A DNA stretch of 64,000 nt from a virus, in the IMG/VR virus record IMGVR_UViG_3300030102_007485, positions 13,880 to 77,879 of that record; one strand, written 5' to 3'. Of this stretch, positions 1-64,000 are shown one piece after another. The notes beneath the pieces were generated by a model, which saw nothing but the letters and a program-made list of their open reading frames with translations, did no database searches and was not told the DNA's origin. The number at the start of each line of letters is the position of its first letter. The first letter of the stretch is position 1. Made by a program: the position numbers and the translations under genes.

Positions 1-18
1 TCAGAAGTTACTTAAAAA

Positions 19-372
19 GTGGACAAAGAAATAAAAACAAGATATAAAGCAAAATTGATCCGGGTTGTCGATGGAGACACTATCGACGCCCAGATTGATT
101 TGGGTTTCGATATCTTTGTTAATAAAAGAATACGTTTATGGGGAATTAATGCCCCTGAGACGCGTTCAAAGGACAAGGATGAGGTTAGTGCTGGAAAGAA
201 GACTTTGATGCGTCTAGCGTCCATTCTCGCCCTCTCAGGTGGAGAGTTTGAGGTAATCACTCACGGTGATGGCAAGTATGGTCGGTGTTTGGGCGAAATA
301 TACGTGGAAGACTTCCAAGAAAGTGTAAATCAACTACTAATCAATGAAGGTCTAGCAAAGGAATATATATAA
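19..372 (+). CDS. Thermonuclease (SNase-like) nuclease
   Basis: RVVDGDTID, RIRLWGINAPE, GKYGRCLG and VNQLLINEGLA are SNase-family motifs; GTG start after an in-frame stop at 13-15. Confidence 0.9.
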   Translation: MDKEIKTRYKAKLIRVVDGDTIDAQIDLGFDIFVNKRIRLWGINAPETRSKDKDEVSAGKKTLMRLASILALSGGEFEVITHGDGKYGRCLGEIYVEDFQESVNQLLINEGLAKEYI

Positions 373-713
373 TGAAAAAGATTGTTGAAAATTTTCGTAA
401 ATTCGCAGATTCGGGTGATGAAATTGATAAATTGGTTGCGAAATACTATTCTGACCTGAGTGATGACGCCCGTCAGGAGAAGGTAGACTTTTTCAAGAAA
501 AGGATGAAAGCGTCAGTTCGGACCAATGGAGAATGGATTCGCAAAACTATGCTTCATTCTTTTGAGCAAAAAATGAAAGCAGAACGGCAAAGAAGAGAAA
601 GGACACCAGAAGAGACCGCCGCAGCAAAGGCAGCATCAGAAAAATCAAAATTAAAATCAGATGAAAGAGAAAGGGAGATGAGAAGAAAGTACGGCAGAAG
701 GTGGAATAAGTAA
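372..713 (+). CDS. Charged hypothetical protein with MKKIVENFRKF N-terminus
   Basis: ORF overlaps upstream stop; N-terminus resembles that of ORF 9061. Confidence 0.7.
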   Translation: MKKIVENFRKFADSGDEIDKLVAKYYSDLSDDARQEKVDFFKKRMKASVRTNGEWIRKTMLHSFEQKMKAERQRRERTPEETAAAKAASEKSKLKSDEREREMRRKYGRRWNK

Positions 714-714
714 G

Positions 715-891: not shown

Positions 892-892
892 T

Positions 893-1054: not shown

Positions 1055-1114
1055 TTACATTGCTTGCTTCTTTGTGATAATATCAATCTACATTAACAAA
1101 GGAAGATAAAAAAC

Positions 1115-2116: not shown

Positions 2117-2143
2117 AAGTTTTGTTGTTTTGATTCGATATAC

Positions 2144-7032: not shown

Positions 7033-7343
<311 letters not shown>

Positions 7344-18850: not shown

Positions 18851-19683
18851 AAATAGGATTTTTGTCAGATTTTTTTGAGCAACACTTGCTTGGCGGCGCT
18901 GAACTGAATGATGGTGTTTTGATAGATCACTTACAGAAAAGTCATCAAGTTATCCGCTTGATTAGTTCTGCTACAACCAAATCTGACATTGATTCTGTTG
19001 ATTTTGTAATAGTCTCCAATTTCGCAAGTGCGAACCCTCAGTTGCTAGACTACATCATATTTTCTAAACCTTATTTGGTGTACGAGCATGATCACAAATA
19101 TGTTACAAATAGGGATCCATCTAAATTCAAAAATTTTAATATCCCAAACGAATTTATTGTAAATAGGGAGTTGTACGCTTCGGCAAGAAAAGTAGTTTGT
19201 CTGAGCAGTAGTCAGACTTCTATAATTGAATCAAATTTAGGTTTAAAGAATTTGGAAAATATATCTTGTAGTTTGTGGAGTCAAAAGAGACTAAACCTTC
19301 TAAGAGAACTTAGTAAGGTTGAAAAAAATCAAATTTTTGCAATAATGGATTCTGCCAATCCTATAAAAAATACTGTGCTCGCTCAAAAGATGTGTGAACA
19401 AAAAAGCATTCCTTACGAACTTATAAGCAGTAAAGACCAAGAGCAGTTTATAAGAATTCTATCTAGGTATGAGGGTTTGGTATTTATCCCTGGCGTTCTG
19501 GAGTCGTTGTCTCGATTGGTTACCGAGGCAAAAATGATGAATTGTAAAATAATTACAACTCCAAAGATGCTGGGTGCTTCTTACGAAGATTGGTTTTCTC
19601 TCTCTGGTGAACCCCTTATAGACGTCATAGAGGAGAACGTCGCCCGTGCATTGAATCTTTTTGGAGAAATTATAGAACAATGA
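18847..19683 (+). CDS. GT-B glycosyltransferase-like protein (GTG start 18847)
   Basis: GGAELND, ESLSRLVTEAK. Confidence 0.75.
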   Translation: MKIGFLSDFFEQHLLGGAELNDGVLIDHLQKSHQVIRLISSATTKSDIDSVDFVIVSNFASANPQLLDYIIFSKPYLVYEHDHKYVTNRDPSKFKNFNIPNEFIVNRELYASARKVVCLSSSQTSIIESNLGLKNLENISCSLWSQKRLNLLRELSKVEKNQIFAIMDSANPIKNTVLAQKMCEQKSIPYELISSKDQEQFIRILSRYEGLVFIPGVLESLSRLVTEAKMMNCKIITTPKMLGASYEDWFSLSGEPLIDVIEENVARALNLFGEIIEQ

Positions 19684-22409: not shown

Positions 22410-22410
22410 A

Positions 22411-23978: not shown

Positions 23979-23988
23979 GGGGGTTAGA

Positions 23989-29697: not shown

Positions 29698-29708
29698 GAG
29701 GTTATATT

Positions 29709-30866: not shown

Positions 30867-31366
30867 TGAATTTTCCTAAAAAACAGGCAAAAACCCAATC
30901 TTTTGATGGTCTGGTCATCGATAATCCAGATTGTTACCATGATTTTAGAGGATATTACTGGACAGTCTGCAAAGATGATGAGAAAATATACAATCATGAC
31001 AAGATCACTGTCTCAAAAAGGAATGTTCTTAGGGGGATCCATGGTGACTTTAACACCGTCAAGATGGTATCGTGCGTATACGGTGAAATCTACTGTGTGG
31101 TTGTGGACAAGAGACCAGATTCCAAGACATACGACCAGTGGCGCTGGATAATGCTCAGTCACACCAATAGAACAACCGTAAAAATCCCCGCAGGTGTTGG
31201 ATTGTCCTATCTTGTAACCAGTGACGAGGCGACAGTGCTTTATAAACTCTCTTATAGAGGGTCTTATCAGGATTCAGACAACCAATTTACATACAAGTGG
31301 GACGACCCAAATTTGGGGATAGATTGGCCAATTAGTTCTCCAATATTGCAAAAAAGAGATAAATAA
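30866..31366 (+). CDS. RmlC-like NDP-sugar 3,5-epimerase
   Basis: DFRG, NVLRGIHG, DKRPDS.TY, WDDPNLGIDWP. Confidence 0.88.
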   Translation: MNFPKKQAKTQSFDGLVIDNPDCYHDFRGYYWTVCKDDEKIYNHDKITVSKRNVLRGIHGDFNTVKMVSCVYGEIYCVVVDKRPDSKTYDQWRWIMLSHTNRTTVKIPAGVGLSYLVTSDEATVLYKLSYRGSYQDSDNQFTYKWDDPNLGIDWPISSPILQKRDK

Positions 31367-31404
31367 AGAAAAAAAAACATAAATATATGGTAGTATGGTG
31401 TAGT

Positions 31405-34411: not shown

Positions 34412-36151
34412 GTGTCGCTGGATGATTTCTTGGTGCCTGATGGGTTGAATCCACGGTCTAAAAAAGATTTTCTTTTTAACGGCGTTGCAGTGTCAACTAT
34501 CCCTGGAACCCACTTGGGTCCTAACATTTTGGCAGAAGCCGCAAGACTATCAAAAGAAGATAATACAAAAATATTGAATGAAAACTCGAACTTTGCTTTG
34601 GCGGTTGTACTCAGAGCAGAGATCGCGGAAGATCCGCGATCTGCATCTGCCTGGTTGCGCGGTCACGCCAGGAGGTTTCAATTGCAACCTCCCGAGGGTA
34701 GTTCACTAGTTATATGCCAGGTGTATGCTGCCAGTGATAAATATCATTGTGGCGCTGGCAGTGTTCGGATAGATGGTTCTTCAACTCCAGTTTCTTCCCA
34801 GGTTGCTAAATCTGCCGAACCCTTCACTTCACAACCCATTCAAACAAATAACGACGGGCATGAACAGTTTTCACCAGCATTTTATGCCTTGGTGCCACCT
34901 GCAAGTGTGCCACCCGTAGGATCTGTCATTGAGGTTAGGTACTTGTCAGATGAACCTTATGGTTCTGGCGTATGGCGTCTCCACGGCGGACAATTATCCA
35001 ATATCCCAGGAATTTTTGAAAACAATGCTCTAAGTTCTATGGGTCTTGCTGAAAATGGATTGCCTTACTTCGGAGGCGAAATGTCGCCAAAGGATCCAGG
35101 TCATCGTTGGGAGGTAAAGGTCAATGACCCGCCACAGGTAAAGGTCGCAAAACAAGAGTATAACAAGTGGGGACCTACAGGGGCAAAGCAGTATTGTAAT
35201 TCGTGGGCACACAAAAAAGATCTCTGTGGAGACAAGGATTATTACTATAGGGATTGGAACTATCAAACCTGGAACGCCATCGCAATGTACTGGAAAGATG
35301 GTGCAAAATCAAAATTTTGCGTAAATTTAACAATTGAGGATCAAATTTATCTTAAAAACAATATCGTTAGACTGCCTAACGGTAGCACTCGTTCTCGCGC
35401 TGATATGCATTGGAGTGGTGCTTTTATACAGTTCTGTATGAGGACTGATCCGTTTTTCAAGGACATGGTGTGGCCAACAGAGGATCGACAAGGCGTAAAA
35501 CAGGCAGAAAACAGGGGATTGCACTCAAGATACATACGCGGATCAATGTATAATACGTTCAAGGTTTTAGATGGTTACGATCTTAAACCAGGCGAGTATG
35601 TGTATATCCCAATGACAAGTAAAATGTCCCCCCTCTATATGAAAAGAGACCATGGATTCGGATCCCAGTTGCAAAAGTTAGGTGTCAACGCCAAGGCAAT
35701 GGTGAAAGGCAATTACGCCACCGAAGAGGTAATGAGGTACAAGAGTGGTGATATATGTCAAAAAATATCTAAATTGCCGAAATCTAAAAAGGATAAGACC
35801 TTAATTGACAAATATCATGGAGACATTGCGGTGGAGGACCAACCAGATGGAAAGACCATCCCAGGTGATAGACCCGAGAATTGGAAACTAGTTGGAAAAG
35901 TCTCAGACAAGAGGTTCACAGATGCAAAGTTAAAGAAACTACATGGTTTTCGAATCGGTGGAAATGTTGGCGGTGCTGTCGCGCCCCAGTTAACTGCACC
36001 GTGTGCAGGGTATACAACCAACAGAAGAGAGGTTATTGAAGCGCTTCGAAAACTTGGCAAAGATTTGCGCGGCAAGGGCACAAATATAATAACGTGGTTC
36101 AGGGCTCCAGAAAACCTTGGCAAAAGCGCAGACCAAAGGGCAACATACTAG
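34412..36151 (+). CDS. Baseplate hub-like protein with DUF2272/CHAP-like hydrolase domain
   Basis: PPVGSVIEV OB-like segment; HWSGAFIQFCM, HGDI, IGGNV. Confidence 0.55.
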   Translation: MSLDDFLVPDGLNPRSKKDFLFNGVAVSTIPGTHLGPNILAEAARLSKEDNTKILNENSNFALAVVLRAEIAEDPRSASAWLRGHARRFQLQPPEGSSLVICQVYAASDKYHCGAGSVRIDGSSTPVSSQVAKSAEPFTSQPIQTNNDGHEQFSPAFYALVPPASVPPVGSVIEVRYLSDEPYGSGVWRLHGGQLSNIPGIFENNALSSMGLAENGLPYFGGEMSPKDPGHRWEVKVNDPPQVKVAKQEYNKWGPTGAKQYCNSWAHKKDLCGDKDYYYRDWNYQTWNAIAMYWKDGAKSKFCVNLTIEDQIYLKNNIVRLPNGSTRSRADMHWSGAFIQFCMRTDPFFKDMVWPTEDRQGVKQAENRGLHSRYIRGSMYNTFKVLDGYDLKPGEYVYIPMTSKMSPLYMKRDHGFGSQLQKLGVNAKAMVKGNYATEEVMRYKSGDICQKISKLPKSKKDKTLIDKYHGDIAVEDQPDGKTIPGDRPENWKLVGKVSDKRFTDAKLKKLHGFRIGGNVGGAVAPQLTAPCAGYTTNRREVIEALRKLGKDLRGKGTNIITWFRAPENLGKSADQRATY

Positions 36152-36152
36152 G

Positions 36153-37223
36153 ATGAGTACTAAGGCAATTAGGGGTCCGGTCGTATTAAAGAAGGAGGGG
36201 GTTGGATACTCTGAAAAGGCAGAAGAGTGTCCAGAGTATAACGCACGCGATGGCGATTGTGTGATAGACGGCCGCGGCATTGTAAACAAGGGAACTGCTT
36301 ATGCAAATAATAACGCGTCAATTGTTCTAGGTCGCGACCGAGGAATGACAGGGACTGTGTTATCGGGATACGGCGGTGCTGCCGACGAGGGCACCGGTAC
36401 AATTGATATTGTAGCAGGAAGAATGTCTCCAGTTCCAAAAAGTAAATCTCCGAGTGGTCAAAAATACATTAATGATCCAATATTTACATACGCTTTTGCA
36501 GCAAAGGAAGGAATCAAAGATGATCGAGGTAATACAGTAAACTACTTTACCGACGCTTCTAGAATCTATGTAAGTCAAAAAACCGATGTAGACTATAATT
36601 TTAGAATCTCTGCTGGACGTGTAAACCCTTCGCCAAGCCGCGGTCAGAACCCGGCAAGTGCAATAGTCTTGCAATCAGACGACTTAAGGTTCGTTTCAAG
36701 AAGAGGTATTAAACTAGTAACGTTAGGATCTAGAGGGTATGGAGAGATCCCTGTTCAAACATCATTGGGTGCAAGGGTAACGAAAACTTATGGTATTGAA
36801 CTGCTTGCAGGCAATGGATATGACGCAAATGGTGAGGCACTTGAGGCAGAACCACTGGTAAGAGGAAAGCAACTTGCGCACTGTTTTAATGAACTTGCAG
36901 TACGAATAGAAGAGGTGCAAGATGGATTTTTTAAGTTTATGAAAGATCAGATACAATTAAATAATCTTCTGATGAACCACACTCATGGGGAGACTTTTGC
37001 CGGCGCAATTACCCTTTGGTCTCCATCTGCCCAAGGTGGTGCTTTGCACGCGAACATTAGTGCCATAAAGAATGCTTTTTCGCAACTCCATTCAGGTATG
37101 AATTTGTTGGACTGGAGAAAAGAGTGGTTGGGTCTAGAAATAAAGAATACTGTCTCTGGAGAAACCAATTCTGCTGTTGGCGCATCTGCTAAATTTAATA
37201 GCAAATATAATTCAACTAATTAG
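36153..37223 (+). CDS. Baseplate spike (gp5/gpV-like) protein (start 36153)
   Basis: Beta-rich repeats (IVLGRDR, RIYVSQKTD, IVLQSDDLR); EPLVRG and NHTH tip motif. Confidence 0.6.
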   Translation: MSTKAIRGPVVLKKEGVGYSEKAEECPEYNARDGDCVIDGRGIVNKGTAYANNNASIVLGRDRGMTGTVLSGYGGAADEGTGTIDIVAGRMSPVPKSKSPSGQKYINDPIFTYAFAAKEGIKDDRGNTVNYFTDASRIYVSQKTDVDYNFRISAGRVNPSPSRGQNPASAIVLQSDDLRFVSRRGIKLVTLGSRGYGEIPVQTSLGARVTKTYGIELLAGNGYDANGEALEAEPLVRGKQLAHCFNELAVRIEEVQDGFFKFMKDQIQLNNLLMNHTHGETFAGAITLWSPSAQGGALHANISAIKNAFSQLHSGMNLLDWRKEWLGLEIKNTVSGETNSAVGASAKFNSKYNSTN

Positions 37224-37261
37224 TAATTATATGTAGTAATACACAAGTGAATTAAAGGGTT

Positions 37262-40200
37262 ATGACTCAAAAAGTACACATTGGATTGTCAAAGATAAAG
37301 TTTGAACCATCTTTAGGTTTCTCCTTCTCAGCAGACGAGTATATGACTCCTGGTGAGCACCATGTGGATTTCCTTGTCTTTAAGGATTTTCTTTCAAGGA
37401 AGGTTTTAAAGTCACTATATGTCTTTGGATCTGTTGATGGGATGCTTGGAAATAGATCCACGGAATCTGCACGACCCTCAATGAGAAAACTCTCCATGGA
37501 TGAGGGTAATAGGTTTTGTGAAAAGACTGTAAGAGCAATCAAGGCATACCAACTATTAAACAGAAGGTCAATATTGCATTATGGTCAAAAACATTTTTCC
37601 TGGGCATCAACAACCCCAGAGCAATCAAAAAGTCTGCACCCCGGAGAAGTTTCAAAAATAATGACCAATGACTTCAAGATTGCGTCAACTCCCGACTTTT
37701 CCAAAGAGTTCGGTTTGTTGGGACCAGCAACAATTGCTGTTATGTTGGGTTATCGCTTTCATAGGACTCACATTAATCCTGATTGGAACAAAGGTCTTGT
37801 TGTAGACAATGGTGTTGCTGCGTATGGGTCTATGGTGGAATCAGACCAATCCAACAACTTCTTTTCAAGTTTGTCATCAAGGCAAAAAAGAAGAGCGGAA
37901 GAGTTTGATCGAATTTATAGTCTGAGAAAAGAATACCAGGAATATAAGAAAAACTCGCCCGCCCCTTCAGAGCAAGATAAAAAGAATTTCTTAGACGCAA
38001 AAGGCGTAAAGTATCAGTTCATGGAAGATTTGGGTGACACCACATTTTCACTCATTGAACAAGAGGCGGATGTCAGGATTTCATACACACCAATGACCGA
38101 TACTCCTGATGACGGTGAGATTTTAGTCGTCGAATCGGTCATGACAAGAAAGTTGTACGACAAGGTCTATAAAAGTTCACCAACCATGAAGTTTTCACCT
38201 GCAACTGCTAGTAGTCTACTTGATTCCTTGCGGGCTTTTGTGAACCGCCGAAAAGGTCTTGAGGGTGCAAACGGGTCTTCTGTTTCTCGATCTGGCATGA
38301 CTGCAAAAAAGGCGGTTGATATATTATCAAAACCGCAACCTTCCGCACAAGGAGACGATCCTTGGATCGGAACTGGAGAGGTCAAAAATTTTGTGCACAT
38401 ATATGTAGACTCTGACTACACCATTGAAGAAGAAGCGGAACTATATGCCCGCTTTGGGGGCAAGGTTGCAACGAAGACTCCTCCTTTAAGAAAGCGTAAG
38501 CAGAAGGGACTAAAAAAAGATGATGCCTTTGTCAAGGAGATTCAGTTTGCCCTTCTTGTCAACGGTGTTTTAGACTCTTTTGATGTACCTGTGATAGAGT
38601 CAGAAAAGGAGCGAGTTCAACTGAGAGTGGAGGATTCATCAGATGCTGTTGTTAGTCTTTTTAAAGAATCTGGGGTTGATCTCGACTCGGCCCGAATAGC
38701 GGTCGCACAACAAAACGATCAATTACCGCCAGATGCACAGGGTGACATGAGTTTTTCTTTCGACATTGGTGATGCTGACAAGGAGGGTCACACTGTCCCG
38801 GTTTCAGAGTTCAAAAACAGACCCACGGGACATATAACATACCTTGAGTACTTGCTGTATGTTGATGGAAAGTTTGGACAAGGTACAGAGTCTGCCGTAA
38901 AAAGTTTTCAGTCTAACCATGGGTTGAAGTCTGATGGGGTTGTAGGTACTCTAACTTATCGCAAGATCTATCAAGTCCATGGAGACAAACTGAGCAAATA
39001 TGGTTTTGAGAGCATTAAGGACACCCTTGGTGCCAGAGCGGAAGTTGCAAACAAGAAGCATGACTACAAGTACTTGACAAGAGATTTGTCTCGTAAAGCG
39101 CTGCAGAAAGTTTTTGCTTATTATAAAAAAGAAACAACCTGGAAGTTAAATCTTGCTGACCCTGAGATAAATGACATATATCCTGGAAAGTACAACCCAA
39201 CTTTGACACAACCAGTCACTTTATCAATCAACGATGACACTTTATTTGATTTTGAGGACGTTGATGCAGAACCATTTAGAACCATTCACGAAGAAATTGA
39301 CCTTCCAGAATCTTTTTGTACAGTAAGGTCGCAACTCAGACCACTTTCTGACATTATGGCAAACTTATCTAATGATGTCGAAGCAAAAAGGAGTTATTGG
39401 GCAACAGAGTCTGTAGCAGACTTTTTTATACCTCCAACTAGACCTGGAGGTTATTTTATGGTTGAATATGTGATAGATCGTAAAAAATTAGATCTTGTTT
39501 TATCGAAAACAGATGCAAAGGTTGTTGATGCAGTAGATGCTGGGATTATGGCATTTGAGACTGCTGCTGTTATTTATGACAAGGTTTCAAAGTTCTTGGA
39601 AGACCCCTCCGCGGCATATGAATTAGCAGAAGAAAAGGTTTCCAAGGCAATTGACGACTATGCTTCCGCTAAAATTGAAGCAATAAGTGAATACAAGAGA
39701 GATGCAATCAAGAATGCAGGAAAGAATACAAGAAATGCTTGGAAAAAACTAAGGAAGAAAAAACAAAAAGATCGAAGGAACCGTTTACTCAAAGAGCGCG
39801 CTGCCAAAAATGCAAGTCAAATACAATCAAGAGATGTTCAACTTTTGGGTGGAACAGCAAAGTTTGAAACTCGCTTGTTTAGGAAAAAGATAGACAAGGT
39901 TGCCAACAAGATGATTGATCTGAATCAATCTTTTCAGGACATGAAAAAGGAGCAGAGCAACATCCAAGCAACAAACAAAGACTTGGGCGCTAGAGGGTAC
40001 TCTCACAAAAAAAAGGAAGACCCATTTCAGTCTTATAGCGACTTTTTAAATATGAAACCCGAATTAGATTTAAAGAAGGATGCAGAGAGATTGAGGGAAA
40101 TACCTGGTGCTATGGAGACTTTTTTAAAGTTAAATGGACAACATCTTGAAGATAAGTTCAATAGGTTTTTGGAGTTTGATTTTGCAAAAGTCCGTGATAG

Positions 40201-43200
40201 GTACGGCAATATATTGGGTGCAAAAATCAAGAGCATATATTTTGTCGGACAAAAACCAGCGGACTATATTGATGAACAGGTCTCCACCGCCGCGGCCTTT
40301 GCGGGATCAGAAGAGTCTTTTCGTGCGTCCCGTCGCAAGTTGGAGCACGGGTTTGATGCACTTATTAAAAAGTCTCCTTTTAACGATCATAGGATAATGT
40401 CCTACTTTGCGCAAATGAATGTTATCGATAAGGAACTGTTCAAATCTGCCTGGGGTTCCCGCTGCGGCGAATATGAGACACTGCCTGTCATGGACTTTAT
40501 CAGCAAGTATGTTTATCCTGCACCTGGTATCTCTTCATTGACTAACGATGCCACGCCTGTAAATAAAAAGACAAGTTCAGGAAAGCCTGTAATTACAGTA
40601 AAGGAGAATATAGAAGAGAATGTAGGGTTGATGTTCTCTCAGTTAAAGACGTCTGCTCAGCGATTGACTGAGCAAGCGTCTGTTACTGCTCAAAATGTGG
40701 ACTCTTTGGTGCAATTTAAAAAAGGAAAAACATATGACGCAAACGACCTGTTACCACTTGGCGAGTTGTGTACGTGGGAAGAGATAACTCAAAAGTTCAT
40801 AAACACTTTCGATTTTAAGTCGTACTGGTGTGAATTTAGTGCGTGCTTGCCTGATATACCGTGGCCAATTGTTATTGATTTGACGTTTGATATCCCAAAA
40901 CTTCCAAAACTTCCAACTTTAAAGCAGTTGAGGATCATATTCGACCAACTCTATATCAGTTTGGTGGAGATGCTGGTGCGCTTTTTTTGCACTTTGATTA
41001 ATAAATTGCTTGATTTAATTAGATTTCCAAACTGTGATGAAATTTTTGAGGCAGCACTTTTTGGTGCAGCAAGTCTTGTGAACGCAATTCAGGAGCACGA
41101 CAGTATGGAGACCCCTGTGCCAATTGGGTCTTACGACATTTCATCGCAGTTTTTGAGAGGGGTCGACCAGTCTAATTTTAATTCCAGCAAAACGAAGGTT
41201 CAAAAAAAGATGTTAAACTCTTTGACGTCTTATGGGATTCCTGCAGAACTTTTATCTGACCCAGACTCTGGAGTTAACGGATCTTCGATGACTGATATGA
41301 TAAATGATCTTTCTGCCCTGATGAGACCAACAGAACTGACCTCTCTTCTGCGCGGTAATGCAACCCCAGAAGTTTTGACAATAATCGTAAATTACATAGA
41401 TATGAACATACCTGCTTTGTCTGAATATCTAAGTAGTGAAAATTCAATACAAGATTTTTTCTCTAACTTGGGTGGACTGATTGATGTAGAGGTTTTGAAC
41501 AGAATAGACAAGATACCTCAAATTCTGGCAGAGAACAGGTTCTGTCCGGAAACCGTTGACGCAAGATCCAGAATTATAATGGGTGATCTTTCTGAGGATC
41601 AACTCAGGTCGGCAATAAATGCACACAACTCAAAGAGTACTCAAACTGCTGAAGCAGTCCGAGCGATGATGACCGACAATCCGATTGCAAGTGCTATGGG
41701 TGACCTTTATAATCCAGGAGATCCTAATGCAATTATCTCCGACGTGCCTGCACCGATGGTTGAGATAATTGAGAGTACAGCAAAATCAATCTTTGAAGTG
41801 CCAAAATTTTCTTTTATTGCCGATGTTTCAAGGTATACAGACCTGTTGTACGATCAGGCGAGCAGACCACTGGAGTACGAAGACCCAGAATTTAATTTAG
41901 ATATAGAAAACAAAGCATTAGAAGCGATAGAGATTCTAACAAAAAACGAGGCAGAAATAAGAAACGCCCTTACAGGTGCAAATGTTGTTCGTAAATGGAG
42001 GTTGCGAGAACGACTTTACGAAAAATTCCATTATGATGTTTTTGTGGTCGAAAAGAAATTCAAAACCCAAAGGCGTAAACGCAACCGTCAAGGGTCTACA
42101 AAACTGGTTACTACAGTTAAATTGTATCCGGAAGTTTCTGATGAGTTGATGCAACAACTTAAGAGTGGTGCACTGACTGACAGTTGTGGTGGCGTTACCG
42201 ATTTGAACGAAAATGGAAGAACCGAATTTCATTTTCTAATAAAAAGAATTGGTTCCTATAACTCAGATCTTTCCCCTGGTGTCCCTTCTTTTGAGAACTT
42301 GCAGTTAGAATTGGTAAACCAAGTGTTTAAGTTGTCGAATTATGTACCAGACTTTTTACCAACAGGTGCTTCCCTCATGGTTAAACCCCAAAAAGAAGAC
42401 GAAGATGGGATTTTAATCCCTAATGCTCCGATTCTGCGCCGCGATGATGGTACTGCTATAAAATCAAGTTTGAACATGAACGACGTGTCGGAATCGGAAA
42501 AGACTGGATTGATTCGTCAAATTACTGACTCAATTGTAACCAGGATCACTGAATTGCAAAATGCTGTAATGAGGCACCTGGAAGTAAACATGTCAGATAA
42601 GAATGATTCTGCTCTTCTCCCCGAGATCAGAAAGTACTATGATCGATCTGAAGAGACCAGAAGAGAGAGAGGTCTGGTCGGTGACGAAGAAGAGTTCTTT
42701 AGGGTGGTACCAAGCGCAACAGCAGACGGTTTTAGTTTTGAGTTGTCTTTGCCAAAAAGATTTCAGTCGTCTCTGGTTTATGAGGAGGTGGCTTCTGAGG
42801 GAGACGAAGACTTGTACAGAATAGTCATAAACGATCAGGTGCTGATGAAATCCTCAGAGAATTTTTATGGATGTGACATTTTACCACAAGAATATGCCCG
42901 TCCCCCCGGCGTGTCTTCTCTTGCCAAGAAGGGAATATACGTGGATATTGTGCGTCGTTCGATGGTAGATCATTTTAAAAGGTATCAAAGGAGTGAGGGA
43001 TACGGTGCGGCACTGTCCAGTCTTAGACGGGCATTTACCCGAGATTTAGAATCCCCTGGTCAAATTGCAGATCAATTGCACGAAGACTCGTACAACAGTA
43101 CTTTTGAAATGTTTTTTGAAGAAATCATGGACCAAATGTCTGACTCTAGAATCTTTAATGATCCTGAGTATATAGAAAAACTAGATGTCAGAATAAGAGG

Positions 43201-46200
43201 TGCAAGAGAGTATGATAAAAATGGATGCCTAGTTAGATCAACTAAGGGTCTTATAGATTTTGAGGAAATTGTAAAAAGTGCTTCTTCTCGTGTTCTTTCG
43301 GCATTTAATGACCCCTCCTTCCATCCGTCCAAGATGGAATTTAATGCTGGGTCCATGGGTCCGTTTGAGAAGGGTATAATTCATTCTGCGATATATTTGA
43401 TGGTCAATTTTTTGCTAATCGAATTTGCGCTGCGAGGCGGCATTGCCTTTTCATCATTTTCTCCAAATGCTCTGTTTGGAAAAGAATCAAGTGGTGCAAA
43501 CGATAATTTTCTTCATAATTATTTGGTCAATTTTATATCAAATAGTCTGTCGCAAGTGATGGTTAGTGCAAACGTAGCGTTCCCTGAATCAACTAAGATA
43601 ACAGACAAGACTCTTTTGTACCCATTCAGAGATGTCTTTATGAATCACTGCGTAGAGTACGTTCGAGTTGTATCTCCAAGCACTGTTAGCACGAGTGATA
43701 AATCTGCAAATCAAAAGAGTGCAATTTCCTATATTGTCAACGAGGTGATAAAAGAAGGTCAACTAATTGATATGATTGAGGGGCTTTTTCACGGCACAGA
43801 GCAGGAAAAGAAACCCTTTGTTAAAACTTTCCTGGAAAATTCACAAATTTTGTCCATACCAGAGGAGACCACTCCAGATGGAATGTGGAAACTAAGTGAT
43901 GTGGAAGAACCAGAAAATGCCATAGAAAAGGGTCGGTTCTTGTTGCAAAAGTATATAAGGGTTACAGGACCTGCCGCTTCAAGAGATTTGTCTCAATATA
44001 CTTTTAGTGAGGAGTTCTTGTCTAAAAAGGATGAAATACTTCAGCGTCTTAGGGAGGTGGATCCCAATCAAGATTTGTTGGTAGATGATCCAGTTGCTGT
44101 CGCTGATCGAATTGATGCAAGAATTGATGTTCTTGAGGAAATGGAACCTCTACCTGGCGCTGCCGACGATGATTACAGAACACCTTTGGAGAATGAGCAA
44201 ACGGAAGTAGTTTCAATCGAGGAACTCAATAGTTATTTGAGAAACTCGTACCAAGGGTCCTTTAATGAAGAATTGTGTAACTTGTTAGGTCTCATTTACA
44301 CAGAAGACCCAGAGAACCCCTGTTTTTTGATGCCGGAAGCATTCACTCGTTTTCCAGGCAAACTTATTAAGAAAAACTTTAAAAGATATAAGATTGACAG
44401 AGGTTTTACCGTTCGTAATCAAGGTCAGATTGAGGGAATTGGACTTCGCTTCCGATACAGGGATTGGGTTGGCCGAGGGCGCAGTGGGTGGAAAGACGAG
44501 GAAGAACTACTTGCATACAATGCAAATCCTCCTCTAGACCAAGCTGGTCGCCCAATGGTCGGGGGTTTTAACGATAGAAATGTTGTAAGATCCCGCGATG
44601 TGCGTTTTTCCTATGAAGTTGATCAGCAAAACGGAGATCGAGGATTCTTCAATGATGTTTTTGACCAATCCCTACTATCAGATGCTAATCAACCGGAATC
44701 CTCTCTTTATAGTACAGGTATATTCTCGAAACTTGGTCGCGCAGGACAATTGGGGGCACTTGTTCATGTGGAGGATGCTGATCCTGAATATTTAATGCTT
44801 GAAGAAGATGTTTGCAAGATCTCATCTGATTTCGGAAAAGAGGGCATAACTAAGATTTTTGAGGGGTATTCTGCTGGTGGTTTTGTAGCCGAGCGAGAAG
44901 ATCTGTTACTAACTGCAGAAATGAAAAACTTTTCGGAATCTTTTACACCAATCATCGGGGCAGGAATTCAAAAACCTAAAGGACCGGAAACATTCTCTCT
45001 ACTCAGCATGGGTCAGGGCGAGAAATTGAAACAAGGAGTGGTCGATGCAGTGCCCTTTATGGACAGTGCCTTTAACACATACCAGAATTCTCCAGACTTG
45101 ATTCCGCTCGACATGCTCACTAACCGGTCTAATTCTTTGCAAGAAGGTGGGGACTACAGTTACGGATCATCCCACCCTAAAATTGAGGATCTTGGTCCTC
45201 GCGGTATGAGGAGGATGGAGCAAAATGACAATCCTCAAGAACAGTTGTTTGGTTGGAAGAAGGGAAAGATAACCGAAGAAGAATTCAATCAATATAGGTC
45301 CATGGAAAACCTTTCGGATGGTTTAAGACCTAGGTTGCAAAACGATATTAAAATACTAGGTCCAAACGATGTTTATGAGGAATGGACACATTACCTTATA
45401 GAGGATCCAGGATACGTTTTTGGACATCCCGGAGAATCTTTGCACCATCCAGAAAGCATGGGGTGCATGATGGACCCATATCACTTTGATGGAACCGACG
45501 CCCCCCGCGATGAATATGGTGATGACTGGTCGTACGTCCATCGTCATTGGGTAGATAGAGCGTTTTTAGAATGTTGTCGTGCCATTGAGGACAAATCTCT
45601 CTTGACTGATGAGAGTAAAAAGCAATCTCGGGTTGGTCAATATTGGGGTTGGGGTTTTGCAAGGTTTAAGCGCCATGGTACCGGGCAAGGACGTAACACC
45701 GACCGGTACAATCCGGGACATGGTCGCTATGATCAGGTTTTCCGATTTAACCATGAAAAGCGTTGGGACGGCAGTAAGGAGAAAGCCACAGAGCATCGAC
45801 GGAGAATTAGACAGTTTCCTAATCGTGCGGCAATCATGGTCAGACCATTGGGGTACCAAAACGAGTCTTACGAGCATGAAAAGACTAACGAATTAGGGGC
45901 AAACGAGTATGCTTCCCCTTTAAAGATATTGGTAACCAGGATAGACTATAAGATTGGGGATACAGTTTTACACTCTGATGTTTACATGGGGTCAGAATAT
46001 AATGACGGCGGTATATTGGCAGGGTCTGATCTTCGTGCCTCGCATACGGAGAACGAATATCGCTCCTTAATGCTGTCCGAAGCAATAAACAGACTTATGA
46101 TGGAGTGGGTTGAGAATAATACATCTGCAATTAATCTTTATAATGGAGAGGTGTCTAGCGATTTTCTTCGTGACAACTTGCGAAAAAGAATTGAAGAATA

Positions 46201-48985: not shown

Positions 48986-49003
48986 TTCAACAGGAGGGTT
49001 CTT

Positions 49004-49405
49004 ATGTCTAGGGGATTAGCAGTAAAATTACCTTTGAGAATATCAGAAGAGTTTGGACCATACGACCTTCACACGGATATTAAGACAATGGTTCATCAAA
49101 ATTTAAAGATGATTTTACTAACAAATCCAGGAGAAAGAATAATGAATCCGGATTTTGGAGTTGGTCTTCAAACGTTTCTCCATGAACAAAACACGGCATC
49201 TTTGGTTGGTCGAATTTCATCCAAAATTCAAGAGCAGGTAGAAACGCACTTAGATTTTATAGAAATAACGGAAACATACATAGGTCCAGATCAAAATTCT
49301 CTTAATCCATCCGACAATGTTTTGTCCATAGTTATAAAATATAATATCATCCCAATCTCAGAAGAGGATATTCTATCAATTACTCTCTCAGATTTTGGTT
49401 TGTAA
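49004..49405 (+). CDS. Baseplate wedge gp25-like protein
   Basis: QNLKMILLTNPGERIMNPDFGVGL; SD AGGAGG. Confidence 0.93.
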   Translation: MSRGLAVKLPLRISEEFGPYDLHTDIKTMVHQNLKMILLTNPGERIMNPDFGVGLQTFLHEQNTASLVGRISSKIQEQVETHLDFIEITETYIGPDQNSLNPSDNVLSIVIKYNIIPISEEDILSITLSDFGL

Positions 49406-49438
49406 ACCTAATTATTTGGAAAGTTTTGAGGTTTTTTG

Positions 49439-59700: not shown

Positions 59701-62700
59701 TATACACAGATGGCGAGTACGTTGGACCTCACGACCTAAATTCACACACAGCGACCTCGCATCTTGCAGCATGGTATCGAATGGGTGATGGCGACAACGG
59801 AAGCGGCACTGCGGATGCCTATAACGGTAGTATACATGATATGAGTGCAAACTCTTTTCACGCTGTGCCAACAAACCTTGCAGCATCCGCAATACAAACT
59901 GTGTCATCTGAACTTCCTGGGACCTTTAGTGTCTACGAGAGAAGGCAGCAGAGAGACAACGCTTTTGTTCAGCATCCAATTCCAAGAAATGATTTGCAGT
60001 ATAGTTGGATCGCCGCGAAGACAACTGATACAAGAGAGACGTTCCCTGGGTACAAGCATGATTTCACTATACCCGTTGGAATTGACACAGCAAGACAAAG
60101 AGAGATTGCAATCCTACAATCTTCAGCAGGAACATACTCTGATTTTGTTGGACTTCATTACACGTCGTCCGCTCCAACTATAATAAACTCATCTATCAAT
60201 ACTGGTAGCAATACGTTTTCTTATGATTTTGGAACTCTTGCTGACCGGCATCATTTGAGATCCTTTATCGCTAAAAGATCTCCATATGCCTGGAATTCCT
60301 GGAAGCAACTTCGTGGTGGCGACCATCCAATAGCAAAATATTATAGAAGTCAAAATATTATCTCCATCCACTTGAGGGACGGAGAACCTAATTCATCTCC
60401 TTTTATGGAATATGAGAGACCGCATGGTATAAATGAAAACAGAACAGTAACAAAGAGCAGGGTGATACAGAATTATCAAGAACCCTCTGTTACTTCACAG
60501 TACAAACCAATGGAACTCATGTTTGGGGTTATTAGTGATGCAAATTATGGTCAACTCCGAGAAGATACCCTTGGAGAAGGTGGAAAGGTTGGAACAGCGC
60601 AAAGAAGAAGAAGCAGGGTCTTCGGTGCTGAAAGGTCTGAAGTAAAGATGAAAATCTCTTACGCAAATAATCTTTGCAAATTTGCAAACAGAGACTTGAT
60701 GAACGTTCTTAAGTTGGAAGACACTGGACCAACAGATTTTGGGAATCTTTTGGAAAGCATGAGGTCAAACCTTATTGCAACCCCAAGAGGATTTAAATAT
60801 TCAGAAACAATATATCCAGCAGAAGTTAATGCGTATCAAAAGGAAACCAGACTTAGAACTGCTTTTGTTAGTCACGAATGGAGAGACACTAGACTTGCAA
60901 GGTTTGAAATGTTGACAAGAAGTGTCACAGAGAGGTCTTACAATTACGATTCTTGGTATACAAACACTATAGAAGCAAACACAAAAACAAACTCTCAGAA
61001 TGTTGCAATTCTAGATTCAAATAATGCCGGTTCTTTGAATTACCATCTGAGTCAAAGCATGTGGGCACTTGACGCCCGTAGTAATTTCGCTGCCATTCCT
61101 GAAAAGTTGTTATCAAGCAACCTGACTTGGTCCAGCAATGCACAGAGAGACGCTTATAAACTTCAATTTGTTACAAACCTTAAGGATTCTGGGGAGTTGC
61201 AAAATGGATACAGTATTTTCCATCAGTATGGTGCAACTCAAGGAAGGTACGACCTTTTGACCGCTGCATTGTATAATCGCAGAATTCCTCAAACGGTAGG
61301 GTCCAGCACTTATTTGGCAGGCGAAGCAAAATGGGAGGCAGGAGACCAAGCAGGCAAGTACCCTTTTGAGAAAGACTACAACACATGGGCAGAAGAGTTA
61401 AGGACTGTTCCAGATTTCTCTCTTATTCCAGAGTTTAGAATTTCGGAACATATTCCAAATTACTTAGAAAATGGAAACACTAGAGATCCAATTGAGACTT
61501 TTCTGGAATTAACCGGATCATCTTTGGACAGCAGTAAAGGTACTTTTTTCAAAACATATTCTAATACTGATTTTATGAAGTACTTTACAGTAGTTAAAGA
61601 CTCCTTGAGCAGTGGAAGTTTGGACAAAGAACCTTCTTCATTGTTTTTGAAGTGTTCCGCAATGCTTAAGATGCTTCCTTACGAAGGTTTTTACCCAGCA
61701 ACAAGAACTTTGAAAATAGCAGAACTCTTTCAAGAAGGTTACACAGACAACAACTTTGATCTCTCAACTATTGTTCCTGCTCCAACTAATGTTAATAAGC
61801 AGTTTTATAGCAGAGTTGCTAATACAAATGTCAGAACAAATATGCATCTTGCAACAAAGGCGTTATATGCTCCAGGGGTTTTGTATAATTCAATAAAATC
61901 TGGTGTTGCTGTTGATTATCCAATTTTTAAAAATGAAGGAATAGGCAAGTGGAGTTTGCAAACTTTCACCAGTTTTCCGCTCTTCTCCATATTAACCGTG
62001 ACTTCAGATAATGCCTCTGGGTCATTAAAGAACTTGTACACAGGATACGGAACTTCTATAACAGGAAGTTATTTAAATGGCACGCAAGACCAGTCGATAC
62101 CAAGAATTAAAGGTTCGGTCTCAAAGAGGGTTAGTTTTGAGGAAATGATTGACCCATCAGTATTGGAGGGGGTGATTTTGTACGATAACGAACCACACCC
62201 TTCTGCTTCATACGGAAGTTTTGCTTTTGGGAATCCTGACAGAACCACTTCACTAGACGCATTCCCTCGTTATGGACTCATGTTTGCTCAATCTGAATCG
62301 GACGCAACTGGTTCTGCTTGGCAAGCAGATATCCCTACTGCACGAGCAGGTGATACAACAGAGTATTCTTTGGCAATGAGTAATTTTGCTGCTGAAGTTC
62401 CAAACTTTTTCTTAAAAGATAACTCTCTTACAACTATCTTATCTGAACCTGGACCGTTTTCTTTTAACAAGTCAGAAATTGGTAAAACCTTTAAGATGAG
62501 ACTCACGTTCAAGAACAACTCTACATTGATGTATGACAATGTTTCTGCTTTTGGACCTCCTGTTGATAATAGTACTGGTGCAGGCGCAGGTGGGGATTAT
62601 GATTTTGATCCATATGTACCAGCATTTTTAAGAAAAAACGCGGACCCATTCGTGGAGTTTGTTTTTACTCCGACCAAGAGAGAGTATGCTATAGATGAAA

Positions 62701-63917
62701 TGCAGGGTGAGGTTACGGCAAGTTTTGGTTTGGGAAATACGACAAGATCTGTAAGATACAGTACAAATCTACAAGCTCAAATGACATTATCCAGTTCTTT
62801 GAATCTTTTCGGAACGCTCAAGGAACCTGCGGTCACTCTAGACAGAGATGGCAATCCATTGCAAGTAGAGGAGCGTGCTACAGACCGATTTAGGTGGATG
62901 ATCCAGACCAAGTGGGAATGTCCTGTTTTAGACTTTTCAACTTCTGATATTACCTTGTTCGACGTCACGGGCAGCAAAGAAGTGAAATTGACAGAGGAAT
63001 ACTCAAGTACTCCCGGTGCTTTAGGGACTCCATGGTCTACAACCAACAAAATAGGTAAGAAAAGTTCTTTTATGACAGGTTCAAGAGGTATGTGGCATCA
63101 GTATGGACAACTACCCGCTAAGGAAAAGGGTTATCAAATTGTGCTGTCAGACGTAAACGACCTTAGCGAATCCCTTGCATCAAAGATTGGATTCCCAGTT
63201 GGAACACCATTTCAGGTTGGTCAGGTTGCTGACGGAAAGGAGATTGGAGAGGCAATCGTAGCGGTGCCTTATTATGTAGAGTCAGGAGATTTAAACTTTT
63301 TTGATCTAGATGTTGAAGACATGAGAGAAGTTCTTGGAGAGTTTGATGCTCTGCGCGGAGAGATTGCCCTTACTCCTGGAGTAAATCCAGCAGTTAGGCA
63401 CCAGATAGAAATGATGCAGAAGTACATTTTCCCACCTCAGATGGATTTTGTAAAATATCGTGACAAAAGTCCAATTGCTATGTATGTTTTTGAGTTTACT
63501 CATGATTTGAGCAAGCAAGATCTTGTAGACTTGTGGCAAAATCTGCCTCCTAAAATTGGACAACATGCAGAGGGCACACAACAAAAGGTTGTCGGTCATC
63601 GTTTAGTCAAGAATGGACAAGTCAAGGATCCACTCAACGGAAGCATGGCAAACAAACTTCAATGGATGGTGTTCAAGGTTAAGCGCAAGGCAGAAAAGAA
63701 TTACTTTAAGAAACTTGATGATTCTGCTTTCCAAAAGTCAGGAAAATCAGGCAATGTTTTGCGAGAAGGGAAGAGTCTTGCTCTGATCGATACTTTGGAT
63801 CAAAAATTTAGTAAAACTGACGGATATTCATACAACTGGCCATATGATTACTTTTCACTAGTAGAACTAATTAAATTGGATGCAGAAGTGGTCTTCAGAG
63901 ATGATGAGGGCAACTAG
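53790..63917 (+). CDS. Giant (3375 aa) baseplate wedge gp7-like/tail protein with LamG domains
   Basis: YKSKGTESSFRNLLRCFG; DNWHHYAV..LYVDG..LDEFRFW; DNQWHHVG..LYVDG..DVSIW. Confidence 0.8.
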   Translation: MSLKKFFEDKDRKIIKLVDYKASEELLEEQSYTHDFIVSKELTLRRFVPRVDYSDPKNFAFFGNAERYYEDSIKRIYDTYPYDDSPQEKEQWFLSSSYLDLHVFRNDYPSTTGYIEFAPLGWGSQSSVSASYGNPAFKEYIYVKGGPNKNNEYKPDKNKESNLKLDASRGNTVEFFLKKKEFVPSLTKKEVIFDCATNDSDISAFGSSYGRFRVELDSQATGSPFLVTYSSGSRGASDVVLGQSLPKSSVADDNWHHYAVSVHNSGSTLEISLYVDGALNHTVKSGTSCAANDVNFNANIGALVTAPTSTSTAAIGWGKLSGSLDEFRFWKVKRDGKQIGSNWRHQVTGGSNFKEVTGDLGVYFKFNEGITGDTEVDKVVLDYSGRVSNGNWQGYYANCRSTGSAIVESGANTEEFKDPIIRSNHPLVLSLLEEKRSVGRSHDMTNSSALYNTFPNWMQADDVDAYKGSGKLAELVQIISSYFDVLYLQIKVLPGLKDKAYRDYPTPQHLSGSKPAPFADKLLRSSGFIAPELFVESNVVDRILGQDANRSYEQDLTDIKNLIYKNIYNNLVKIYKSKGTESSFRNLLRCFGIDDELIKLNLYSSGYTYKFEDTYLYKSEKVKGINFNNTSSFGATVFQQTSSYGNTHYISGSKNMYMPYTIQTDVIMPLKLVSGQTGFFETNFLTSSIMGMHTPKVTPGDTDWETSDLAGFQVFAVHHPTREGVAKFMLTSSKGNVPKLSTPYLEEVYDDKHWSLSVRVKPALHPRVGSVASFANATATITTTGNPSNNEEFVLTDADGRSVTYIFKTSVATVDGTKENGKVIIGLNGASGHAASVGDRMRAAIGASDLNVTVVETAAGQMRLTQKTKGSSGNTSIDMTAVTTVTSTDFTGGVGHYTVEFSGYNYIVDELQQSFSLSGSSTVSALGGFASSRKSLYVGANRTNATDTVQHSSDIIVNSARVWKGYLEEEELKSHALSFNEYGRLNPSKSAFLFESGSNTTEVNQAASMLLHWNFDQVTGSDANGEFFVADISRQYSGSFGTLNTALDTYHGGTGFGFPASEPTMVRGMSLAVAKENLPENIHNSSLVTIETHDKERLTRYTRPINYYFAFEKSMYQTISEEMVKMFATVVEFNNLIGEPVNKYRPTYKKLDHLRSMFFANVDEDPDLDKYVEFYKWFDVSMAMMLDELRPVSMPGSEGIKNMVESHILERSKYQHRAPTLEFRDTTPEAHILGVNELLYDWEHGHAPVGMSNPSAAVGTITTTGNPGNNETFTLTDADGLSVTYVFKTGVATVDGSKDGDNVIIGVNGATGHAPSVGDRMRAAITASSLNVTVVETAGGAMSLTQNTKGAKGNTNIDMSGVTTVTATNFTGGTGTLEQDNCLWWKDRAQRDELLSVSSKVDSDRETIKTRANTVVSGSTYVIRKLSRPYRFTMEKNNLIDPGSNVATNKINNMHQGIIKFGSTTDAIELAAADLEEQVVCNDVFVPNQKERLHGKMDTLGTDGYLDADSDLIAPFSLYSSSVGDNALSTFKSGVALTNNHGDSYHIDGQIPLQGLFTAQHVGGKVHRDVEVTVSSPELRPEAYALEVTAGKIKIVHQPTNRPRSMFYRNEMIRRPVNIRNIRTTTGSYKVGNYQEVYEYALTNGRRENNNDFAQNDGYTGSLYSSVAAIATGLLDQPKPNRNKNTHVIVNRFSAPGGTEVMGDSNGGPNLDFAAAEYSVYNSMNHRNSLVREVKNDLEAEYSERFGLRSGSAPVATSYEIVSGSQRGFASVHMTNRNELTKYVVASTSNYNTKAILFDGTNDFLEIDETRAIYKNNQSFSVFAWIKHGTVDVSFQHTIWSHHDTSGANRNIFGIKGTSTNNGVTPGTLFFYQEGHSWQSLSSVRIDDNQWHHVGFVYEGVSNTVRLYVDGKAQLGAISISNIADQTNDSSDKVSIGQEFDGGTPSDFFKGYMTDVSIWSKPLINNEVHEIYTDGEYVGPHDLNSHTATSHLAAWYRMGDGDNGSGTADAYNGSIHDMSANSFHAVPTNLAASAIQTVSSELPGTFSVYERRQQRDNAFVQHPIPRNDLQYSWIAAKTTDTRETFPGYKHDFTIPVGIDTARQREIAILQSSAGTYSDFVGLHYTSSAPTIINSSINTGSNTFSYDFGTLADRHHLRSFIAKRSPYAWNSWKQLRGGDHPIAKYYRSQNIISIHLRDGEPNSSPFMEYERPHGINENRTVTKSRVIQNYQEPSVTSQYKPMELMFGVISDANYGQLREDTLGEGGKVGTAQRRRSRVFGAERSEVKMKISYANNLCKFANRDLMNVLKLEDTGPTDFGNLLESMRSNLIATPRGFKYSETIYPAEVNAYQKETRLRTAFVSHEWRDTRLARFEMLTRSVTERSYNYDSWYTNTIEANTKTNSQNVAILDSNNAGSLNYHLSQSMWALDARSNFAAIPEKLLSSNLTWSSNAQRDAYKLQFVTNLKDSGELQNGYSIFHQYGATQGRYDLLTAALYNRRIPQTVGSSTYLAGEAKWEAGDQAGKYPFEKDYNTWAEELRTVPDFSLIPEFRISEHIPNYLENGNTRDPIETFLELTGSSLDSSKGTFFKTYSNTDFMKYFTVVKDSLSSGSLDKEPSSLFLKCSAMLKMLPYEGFYPATRTLKIAELFQEGYTDNNFDLSTIVPAPTNVNKQFYSRVANTNVRTNMHLATKALYAPGVLYNSIKSGVAVDYPIFKNEGIGKWSLQTFTSFPLFSILTVTSDNASGSLKNLYTGYGTSITGSYLNGTQDQSIPRIKGSVSKRVSFEEMIDPSVLEGVILYDNEPHPSASYGSFAFGNPDRTTSLDAFPRYGLMFAQSESDATGSAWQADIPTARAGDTTEYSLAMSNFAAEVPNFFLKDNSLTTILSEPGPFSFNKSEIGKTFKMRLTFKNNSTLMYDNVSAFGPPVDNSTGAGAGGDYDFDPYVPAFLRKNADPFVEFVFTPTKREYAIDEMQGEVTASFGLGNTTRSVRYSTNLQAQMTLSSSLNLFGTLKEPAVTLDRDGNPLQVEERATDRFRWMIQTKWECPVLDFSTSDITLFDVTGSKEVKLTEEYSSTPGALGTPWSTTNKIGKKSSFMTGSRGMWHQYGQLPAKEKGYQIVLSDVNDLSESLASKIGFPVGTPFQVGQVADGKEIGEAIVAVPYYVESGDLNFFDLDVEDMREVLGEFDALRGEIALTPGVNPAVRHQIEMMQKYIFPPQMDFVKYRDKSPIAMYVFEFTHDLSKQDLVDLWQNLPPKIGQHAEGTQQKVVGHRLVKNGQVKDPLNGSMANKLQWMVFKVKRKAEKNYFKKLDDSAFQKSGKSGNVLREGKSLALIDTLDQKFSKTDGYSYNWPYDYFSLVELIKLDAEVVFRDDEGN
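56118..56474 (+). repeat. ~120-aa inserted module, copy B
   Basis: ATATITTTGNPSNNE...VGDRMRAAI...FTGGVG. Confidence 0.9.
57558..57914 (+). repeat. ~120-aa inserted module, copy C
   Basis: AVGTITTTGNPGNNE...VGDRMRAAI...FTGGTG. Confidence 0.9.
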
Positions 63918-63933
63918 TTTGGAATTCAATTAA

Positions 63934-64000
63934 ATGTCGTTTATTAATAAAAAAGAAGAAGTAATCAACATTCAGTTAACAAGGTTCGGCAAAGAGGCGA
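63934..64000 (+). CDS. Partial tail/baseplate protein (MSFINKKEEVINIQLTRFGKEA...), truncated by window end
   Basis: ATG 17 nt after previous stop; LTxxG motif typical of tail/baseplate N-termini. Confidence 0.6.
   Translation, partial: MSFINKKEEVINIQLTRFGKEA

Follow-up and report, generated by a model that had tools for sequence, protein, structure and literature searches.

The stretch of 64,000 nucleotides studied here (the window) corresponds to bases 13880–77879 of a single 77,879-bp viral contig, IMG/VR record IMGVR_UViG_3300030102_007485 (hereafter G000), with a completeness of ~43% according to CheckV. The tetranucleotide RGCY (R, purine; Y, pyrimidine; i.e., AGCT, AGCC, GGCT, and GGCC) is almost absent from it. 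Because more than 100 related contigs of up to 130–190 kb with a conserved gene order were found in IMG/VR, and because the same sequence is present in marine metagenomes from many independent studies (2014 to 2025), this contig is part of a large uncultured marine myovirus. Contigs from two runs are letter-identical to the window over 31–49 kb, and a third run contains a strain ~1% diverged. The sequence is therefore real and does not result from an assembly or base-calling artefact.

Coding sequence makes up 96% of the contig, with nearly all genes on the + strand. Among them are the genes for gp25-like and gp6-like baseplate wedge proteins, which have a giant open reading frame (ORF) on either side (table 1). 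According to the baseplate protein, the closest cultured relatives are Microcystis phage Mel-JY01 and Flavobacterium phage immuto, with merely 32–33% identity, and a 20-kb megablast search against cultured phages gave zero matches. The 16-kb sugar-pathway cluster comprises genes for two GT4 glycosyltransferases, another glycosyltransferase, a carbamoyltransferase, two DegT aminotransferases, a dTDP-sugar epimerase, a nucleotide-sugar epimerase, a PfkB kinase, and a small-molecule S-adenosylmethionine methyltransferase. Bacterial genomes searched with the carbamoyltransferase provided a sole lead, a Marinobacter homologue with 30% identity. Other genes of the contig encode a PIN-PhoH fusion, IscU/NifU, a ClpP-like protease, a PD-(D/E)XK nuclease, and an SNase. 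The transfer-messenger RNA (tmRNA) gene specifies a tag that we take to resemble proteobacterial tags, a resemblance that is no test of the host. The PurA-like protein matches cellular PurA structures with an E value of 1e-57 and PurZ structures (6fm1 and 7odx) with values of 1e-21 to 4e-16. As it is far nearer to cellular PurA than to the solved PurZ, we rejected the hypothesis of a Z-genome containing 2-aminoadenine, and the PHROG label "aminooxy adenylosuccinate synthetase" is not evidence for one.

Table 1. Features of the Window (Window Coordinates) and of Related Loci (Locus Coordinates)
Feature	Position	Strand	Description
Short adenylosuccinate synthetase (PurA-like), 333 aa	1115-2116	+	Homologues in >129 IMG/VR contigs
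tmRNA gene	7033-7341	+	Rfam RF00023, 130 bits; tag ANDDVEIFEDYALAA
Sugar-pathway cluster, 16 kb	16347-32534	+	Enzyme genes
Surviving GGCC	31326..31329	+	Trp-Pro, TGG CCA; first site in window
Relaxed-depletion island	34412..45802	+	16 RGCY sites
Island ORF, 579 aa	34412-36151	+	ORF
Surviving GGCC	35472..35475	+	Trp-Pro, TGG CCA
Island ORF, 368 aa	36117-37223	+	ORF
3907-aa ORF	37262-48985	+	Peptidoglycan-binding domain near residue 550
Surviving GGCC	40863..40866	+	Trp-Pro, TGG CCA
3375-aa ORF	53790-63917	+	Laminin-G/ConA-like domains near residues 1800-1970
Stretch 95-98% identical to G003	59949..64000	+	Alignment with G003
Surviving AGCT	62774..62777	+	Gln-Ala, CAA GCT, synonymously removable; common to G003
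Surviving GGCC	63838..63841	+	Trp-Pro; common to closest relative G003
EcoRV-fold nuclease-like ORF and N4-cytosine methylase operon	L102:690-2688 (record G007); also L103, L158-L174		Sequence and structure matches
MvaI/BcnI-family restriction endonuclease (PF15515) directly upstream of SPPY methylase	L108:755-2196 (record G026)		Profile match

Near Absence of RGCY from the Contig

An exact count gives 19 RGCY in the window (AGCT 2, AGCC 5, GGCT 4, and GGCC 8), which contains 944 RGCR, 652 YGCY, and 666 YGCR. From the trinucleotides (maximal-order Markov model), 283 are expected, corresponding to an observed/expected ratio (O/E) of 0.067, and the z-score of each of the four words lies between −8 and −11. 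All four rank among the six tetranucleotides that are most under-represented in the window. The remaining two, TGCA and CGCA, fall short of expectations that the shift of GC contexts has raised: the compensating excess of AGCA, TGCT, TGCC, CGCT, and GGCA shows that GC dinucleotides have been moved into other contexts.

Synonymous codons were also permuted gene by gene over the 77,879-bp contig as a whole. The contig contains 23 RGCY against 509 ± 15 in these shuffles (z = −32, O/E 0.045), and the control words YGCR, GATC, RCGY, and RCCY remain within a |z| of about 2. The observed and expected numbers per word are 3/181 for AGCT, 5/111 for AGCC, 5/130 for GGCT, and 10/88 for GGCC, six of the ten GGCC being forced by Trp-Pro dipeptides. 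In a scan of 4-, 5-, and 6-mers, no second word was avoided to a comparable degree. CCWGG, GGWCC, GATC, CCGG, and GCGC are at ordinary levels in the contig, with 270 GATC, 63 CCGG, and 102 GCGC in the window. Chance is thus far from sufficient to explain the shortage of RGCY, which persists once composition, trinucleotides, and codon usage are corrected for. We also observed a weak second avoided word, GTCGAC, present once in the whole contig for 10 expected (z = −3.7).

An earlier note, made by reading the letters of the window, had reported near-total avoidance of RGCY, with GATC, CCGG, and GCGC clearly present, and both statements are borne out by the counts. It held that a ratio near 1 after codon and trinucleotide correction would speak against avoidance; the two corrected ratios given above are clearly far lower. 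The first 4.4 kb are free of RGCY, as it stated, since the first site lies at 31326. Its spot checks correctly found the AGCT at 62774 and overlooked the GGCC at 31326 and 63838. Its extension of the avoidance to the whole stretch is right overall, with the reservation that the part from 34 to 46 kb, which it had not read, holds 16 of the 19 sites.

Selection against the Word Itself

Avoidance is visible in codon context in all three reading frames. In the contig, the Ala codons GCC and GCT are found 12 times after a purine and 486 times after a pyrimidine. The base following AGC or GGC is a pyrimidine in three cases and a purine in 403. After codons ending in RG, Leu is encoded 132 times by TTR and once by CTN, and Pro or CTN-Leu codons follow xRG codons in eight cases. 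At 104 conserved dipeptide positions with RGCY in non-avoiding relatives, this phage retains a single site.

At orthologous sites, each of the four motif letters has been hit by replacements. As single changes, C>T and G>A at the central GC are the most frequent, and together they account for 37 out of 103, which would favor a mutational decay by deamination of 5-methylcytosine, similar to that of CpG in vertebrates. However, in the majority of cases the flanking R or Y has changed or the replacement is a transversion, the window shows no excess of GGTT (O/E 0.905), and the surplus is found instead in YGCY and RGCR. As all four letters have been changed, decay of methylcytosine is ruled out as the cause, and the Trp-Pro survivors together with the context-dependent choice of codons indicate selection.

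The purge extends to noncoding sequence. The tmRNA genes of five non-avoiding relatives contain one to three RGCY each, and the copy of this phage none. This copy is 80–90% identical to those of at least five related contigs and shows single-base differences at the positions of the relatives' RGCY.

Strong, long-acting selection against the word RGCY itself is therefore well supported, by codon context in three frames, the purge of the tmRNA gene, the Trp-Pro survivors, changes at the four motif positions, and the bimodal distribution among relatives described below. This agrees with the long-term selection proposed in the earlier note; the host restriction enzyme that it named as the agent is a matter of inference, which we weigh separately.

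Surviving Sites and a Less Depleted Island

Trp-Pro (TGG CCN) is the only dipeptide that forces a site. It accounts for six of the 23 survivors, which persist because no synonymous change can remove TGG CCN. Among the 17 survivors not due to Trp-Pro, 14 fall inside an 11-kb island of relaxed depletion, where segment O/E is 0.14–0.20 compared with 0.00–0.04 in all other segments. This island contains 16 of the 23 sites of the contig in 19% of the opportunity (binomial p = 1.5e-7). In addition to two complete ORFs (table 1), it includes the first three quarters of the 3907-aa ORF, and it lies upstream of the baseplate genes.

The island genes are the least conserved of the contig, with homologues absent or 21–36% identical in four related genomes. 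Neither the 579-aa protein nor the middle of the 3907-aa protein has a relative in IMG/VR, and no donor of the island was found there. In a sister strain (run X2), the sequence is 16% diverged at 34852–35631, inside the 579-aa gene, versus ~1% around it. The closest relative, G003, has its own RGCY cluster in the corresponding giant gene. These observations suggest that recombination exchanges the island genes, and the island may be a more recent, partly cleaned import. Much of the sugar cluster is also absent from the four related genomes, yet it contains only one RGCY, due to Trp-Pro. Parts of the 34.6–36.4 kb region are without cover in run X3, which carries no evidential weight.

RGCY Avoidance among Related Phages

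We determined the O/E of RGCY in about 100 related marine myovirus loci from IMG/VR. The distribution is bimodal, with avoiders at 0.01–0.16 and all others at 0.8–1.05. Four avoider lineages are distinguishable: this contig, its closest relative G003, G001 together with G004, and G002. The 145 kb of G001 contain 19 RGCY for 754 expected, with neither AGCT nor GGCC, and the 141 kb of G002 contain 63 for 724 expected. Conversely, the whole records of the non-avoiders G007 and G024 contain 1790 RGCY for 1986 expected and 2039 for 2043, respectively. Avoidance was not observed in Microcystis phage Mel-JY01 or in Flavobacterium phage immuto. A different strong word bias is present in Mel-JY01 (L156, 143500–185350), where 42 kb of 32% G+C contain no GATC and 199 CCGG.

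In the tree of the PurA-like protein, avoiders are split over at least two separate positions (nominally three). Over 15 shared genes, the identity to this phage is 52.5% for G007 and 47.6% for G024, against about 44.5% for the avoiders G001 and G002. As non-avoiders are nearer kin than these avoiders, the trait has changed state repeatedly, and it varies among related phages as a host-specific pressure would predict.

In G001 and G002, the DNA-level constraint has changed the protein sequences. Among ~45,000 residues each, they encode no Trp-Pro, whereas 17–18 are expected and the non-avoiders have 13 and 19 (Poisson p about 1e-5 to 2e-5, scaled for the non-avoiders' own Trp-Pro deficit). This phage tolerates the dipeptide, with its six cases.

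The comparison with G003 provides a snapshot of site turnover. In the nearly identical stretch at the end of the window (table 1), G003 has three extra AGCT, opposite positions 61159, 61718, and 61953, each differing by one base. Along the tail genes (48091–64000), the identity to G003 (L125) rises in steps from 71% to 83% and then to 95–98%, indicating recent recombination within the 3375-aa ORF.

In many relatives, avoidance is restricted to GGCC (L069, L007, L019, L050, L051, L056, L062, and others), with 0–4 GGCC against 50–110 AGCT per 20 kb. These relatives indicate that several distinct restriction pressures act on this phage group.

Methylases and Nucleases in the Phage Group

The earlier note had suggested looking for a phage cytosine methyltransferase. 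Neither PF01555 nor PF00145 methylases were found in the five avoider records, among which G000 is ~43% complete. PF01555 is present in 0 of 5 avoider and 8 of ~54 non-avoider records (Fisher p = 1.0) and PF00145 in 0 of 5 and 1 of 50, respectively. This comparison is uninformative, as in most non-avoiders the methylase and the avoidance are both lacking. The lack of an N4/N6 or C5 DNA methylase in the avoiders nevertheless fits avoidance as their only protection.

We searched for genes common to avoiders and absent from the non-avoiders G007 and G024, and none tracks the trait. An HNH endonuclease of G001 and G002 was considered as their own nuclease and rejected, as six non-avoiders also carry it. 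Likewise, a 141-aa ORF common to G001 and G002 is a core gene also found in non-avoiders. Among the ORFs particular to this contig, neither a nuclease nor a DNA methylase could be recognized.

Phage-borne type II restriction-modification (R-M) does occur in this group and is linked to the depletion of a word of the RGCY class. In G007 and G020, the nearest non-avoiders, a 251-aa ORF overlaps the start of the gene for a 419-aa methylase, which has an SPPY motif and N4-cytosine methyltransferases as best PDB matches. The 251-aa protein has an invariant D99...E114-x-K116 motif. Its AlphaFold model (predicted local distance difference test score, pLDDT, 78; predicted template modeling score, pTM, 0.82) matches in Foldseek first EcoRV, then SfiI, NaeI, and SwaI, with a probability of 1.0 and weak TM-scores of 0.32–0.37. 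The protein is therefore type II restriction endonuclease-like. In G007, the nuclease-like ORF (L102:690-1445) and the methylase gene (L102:1429-2688) lie ~16 kb upstream of the point matching the start of this contig. The 12 distinct IMG/VR contigs with the nuclease–methylase pair have a median GGCC O/E of 0.21 versus 0.86 in 93 related loci (p 4e-5, kinship not corrected). All 12 are short of GGCC, and of no other 4-bp palindrome, so that GGCC is the predicted site of the pair. Neither of the avoiders G001 (80% complete) and G002 (78% complete) has a member of the EcoRV-fold family. In G026, a second arrangement associates an MvaI/BcnI-family nuclease with an SPPY methylase. The presence of such systems keeps alive the reading of the RGCY agent as phage-borne.

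Nature of the Selective Agent

We consider restriction-site avoidance in response to an RGCY-type (CviJI-like) nuclease, probably cellular, to be the likely explanation. Selection would have acted persistently on the lineage to eliminate each RGCY from its double-stranded DNA, and the likeliest agent would be a type II nuclease that is produced by the infected cells and has the CviJI-like specificity RG^CY. We know of no characterized bacterial enzyme with this specificity. For a phage presumably without a protective methylase of its own, each RGCY would expose the incoming DNA to cleavage, so that any mutation destroying a site would be favored. About 95% of the sites would have been removed in this way, through the choice of synonymous codons and codon pairs and through base changes in the tmRNA. 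The leftovers would be the Trp-Pro sites and those in the fast-evolving, recombining 11-kb stretch upstream of the baseplate genes. The roughly equal purge of the four words in the contig fits a single RGCY agent. That the agent is a nuclease, that it is of cellular origin, and that one enzyme is involved instead of several are each inferred.

Several points weigh against this explanation. No RGCY nuclease, RGCY methylase, or host was identified in these analyses, and for this reason RGCY cannot yet serve as the host fingerprint that the earlier note had proposed. With ~43% of the genome in the contig, a methylase or nuclease could sit in the remainder. As 23 sites remain, the DNA is not immune. 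The phage-borne type II systems of this group mean that the agent need not be cellular. The loss of words is uneven in other avoiders: the palindromes AGCT and GGCC are at 0–3 in G001 and G002, while 19 and 60 AGCC/GGCT remain, and G003 keeps 12 AGCT against 4 of the other three words together. This unevenness could reflect several enzymes instead of one. Furthermore, in Pacific seawater, methylated motifs of viruses rarely matched those of prokaryotic metagenome-assembled genomes, in a survey by single-molecule real-time (SMRT) sequencing from which 5-methylcytosine would have escaped detection (PMC8919816).

The nuclease might instead be carried by phages and not by cells, which we regard as unlikely. 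This phage could encode its own RGCY nuclease, for example to degrade host DNA, its genome being safe through the absence of the word, or it could be exposed to the RGCY-methylating R-M systems of co-infecting phages. The nuclease–methylase pairs of G007/G020 and G026 and the specific shortage of GGCC in the 12 carriers support this possibility, as do the marine Myoviridae-like genomes that methylate RGCY (PMC8919816) and a purge in G001 and G002 strict enough to strip Trp-Pro from proteins. However, the search for avoider-only genes left none once the HNH endonuclease and the 141-aa ORF were found in non-avoiders, the EcoRV-fold family is missing from G001 and G002, the ORFs specific to this contig include no recognizable nuclease, and the GGCC correlation is uncorrected for kinship.

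With a similarly low probability, several enzymes might act together: AluI-like restriction at AGCT, HaeIII-like restriction at GGCC, and a weaker third pressure on AGCC/GGCT. Relatives depleted in GGCC only, such as L069 (no GGCC and 88 AGCT), L007, and L056, illustrate one of these pressures. L171 has no AGCT, one GGCC, and common AGCC/GGCT, and the uneven losses in G001, G002, and G003 point in the same direction. Yet AGCC/GGCT is not palindromic, and its 20- to 25-fold depletion requires a degenerate RGCY-type reader anyway. The purge affects the four words of this contig equally, and the window contains more GGCG than expected (150 vs. 94), GGCG being a star site of the HaeIII methylase (PMC3526282).

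The modification-dependent defense considered in the earlier note is a less likely variant of the selection it proposed, and we judge it very unlikely. An RGCY methylase in some hosts would mark the DNA, and type IV (McrBC-like) enzymes would cut it in the next host, so that the loss of the word would be an escape from being marked. McrBC reads the dinucleotide R-mC, which a methylated RGCY contains. RGCY methylation is common in this habitat (PMC8919816), but two agents in alternating hosts are required, and no cytosine methylase is seen in any avoider record. Finally, mutational decay or a sequencing or assembly artefact is so improbable as to be negligible, given the replacement spectrum and codon contexts described above and the reproduction of the sequence in independent studies.

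Comparison with Known Systems

The loss, from a genome of ~180 kb, of a word expected every 150 bp would imply that a nuclease with a CviJI-like specificity acts on abundant marine bacteria or their phages. RGCY may represent a major uncharacterized battleground between marine phages and hosts, or between phages, in which a widespread, possibly phage-borne nuclease forces a choice between methylating and erasing the word; we advance this tentatively, as somewhat doubtful. If true, large marine myoviruses have been pushed to two exclusive solutions, RGCY methylation or its erasure down to the loss of Trp-Pro, and the phage-borne option would be analogous to the EcoRV-fold nuclease and N4-cytosine methylase pair of the nearest relatives. 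The trait is discrete and has recurred in unrelated lineages. Uncultured phages could therefore be classified according to the defense acting on them, and the defense itself could be sought in this way. The trait could also serve to study the speed of genome recoding, for which the island, only partly cleaned, and the 95%-identical stretch, with its three AGCT differences, provide internal time marks.

In the metaepigenomic survey of Pacific seawater, RGCY was the commonest viral methylated motif, found in nine viral metagenome-assembled genomes, and it is listed among the N4-methylcytosine motifs common to the Myoviridae-like ones (Seong et al. 2022; PMC8919816). The survey thus marks RGCY as a contested word in this habitat. 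These viruses share with the phage studied here the habitat, the broad kind of virus, and the word, which points to a common RGCY-directed pressure. They differ in that they keep and methylate RGCY, whereas this phage and a few relatives delete it. Methylating and erasing RGCY look like alternative answers.

The word avoided here equals the specificity of the CviJI system of chlorovirus IL-3A. RGCY is the site of R.CviJI, as the earlier note had stated, and M.CviJI methylates RGC(Y/G) (as cited in PMC3526282). CviJI is encoded by an algal virus whose DNA is protected by methylation. In this phage, the protection would lie in the absence of the word, and unlike in the CviJI virus, the contig (~43% of the genome) yielded neither a C5 nor an N4 cytosine methylase.

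This case probably belongs to restriction-site avoidance, as surveyed in virulent phages (Rusinov et al. 2018; PMC6286503). It stands out in that the avoided word is degenerate, the purge is so complete, and the enzyme is missing. A full-text literature search for "RGCY" returned no report of its avoidance in a phage. As in known cases, a short restriction-type word has been removed genome-wide by synonymous changes in a phage for which no methylase was found, and close relatives, in other niches in the known cases, keep the word. In contrast, RGCY is degenerate, with 3 bp of information and one site expected every ~150 bp, so that ~500 sites have been removed from 78 kb, and the purge extends to an RNA gene and, in two relatives, has altered which dipeptides their proteins contain.

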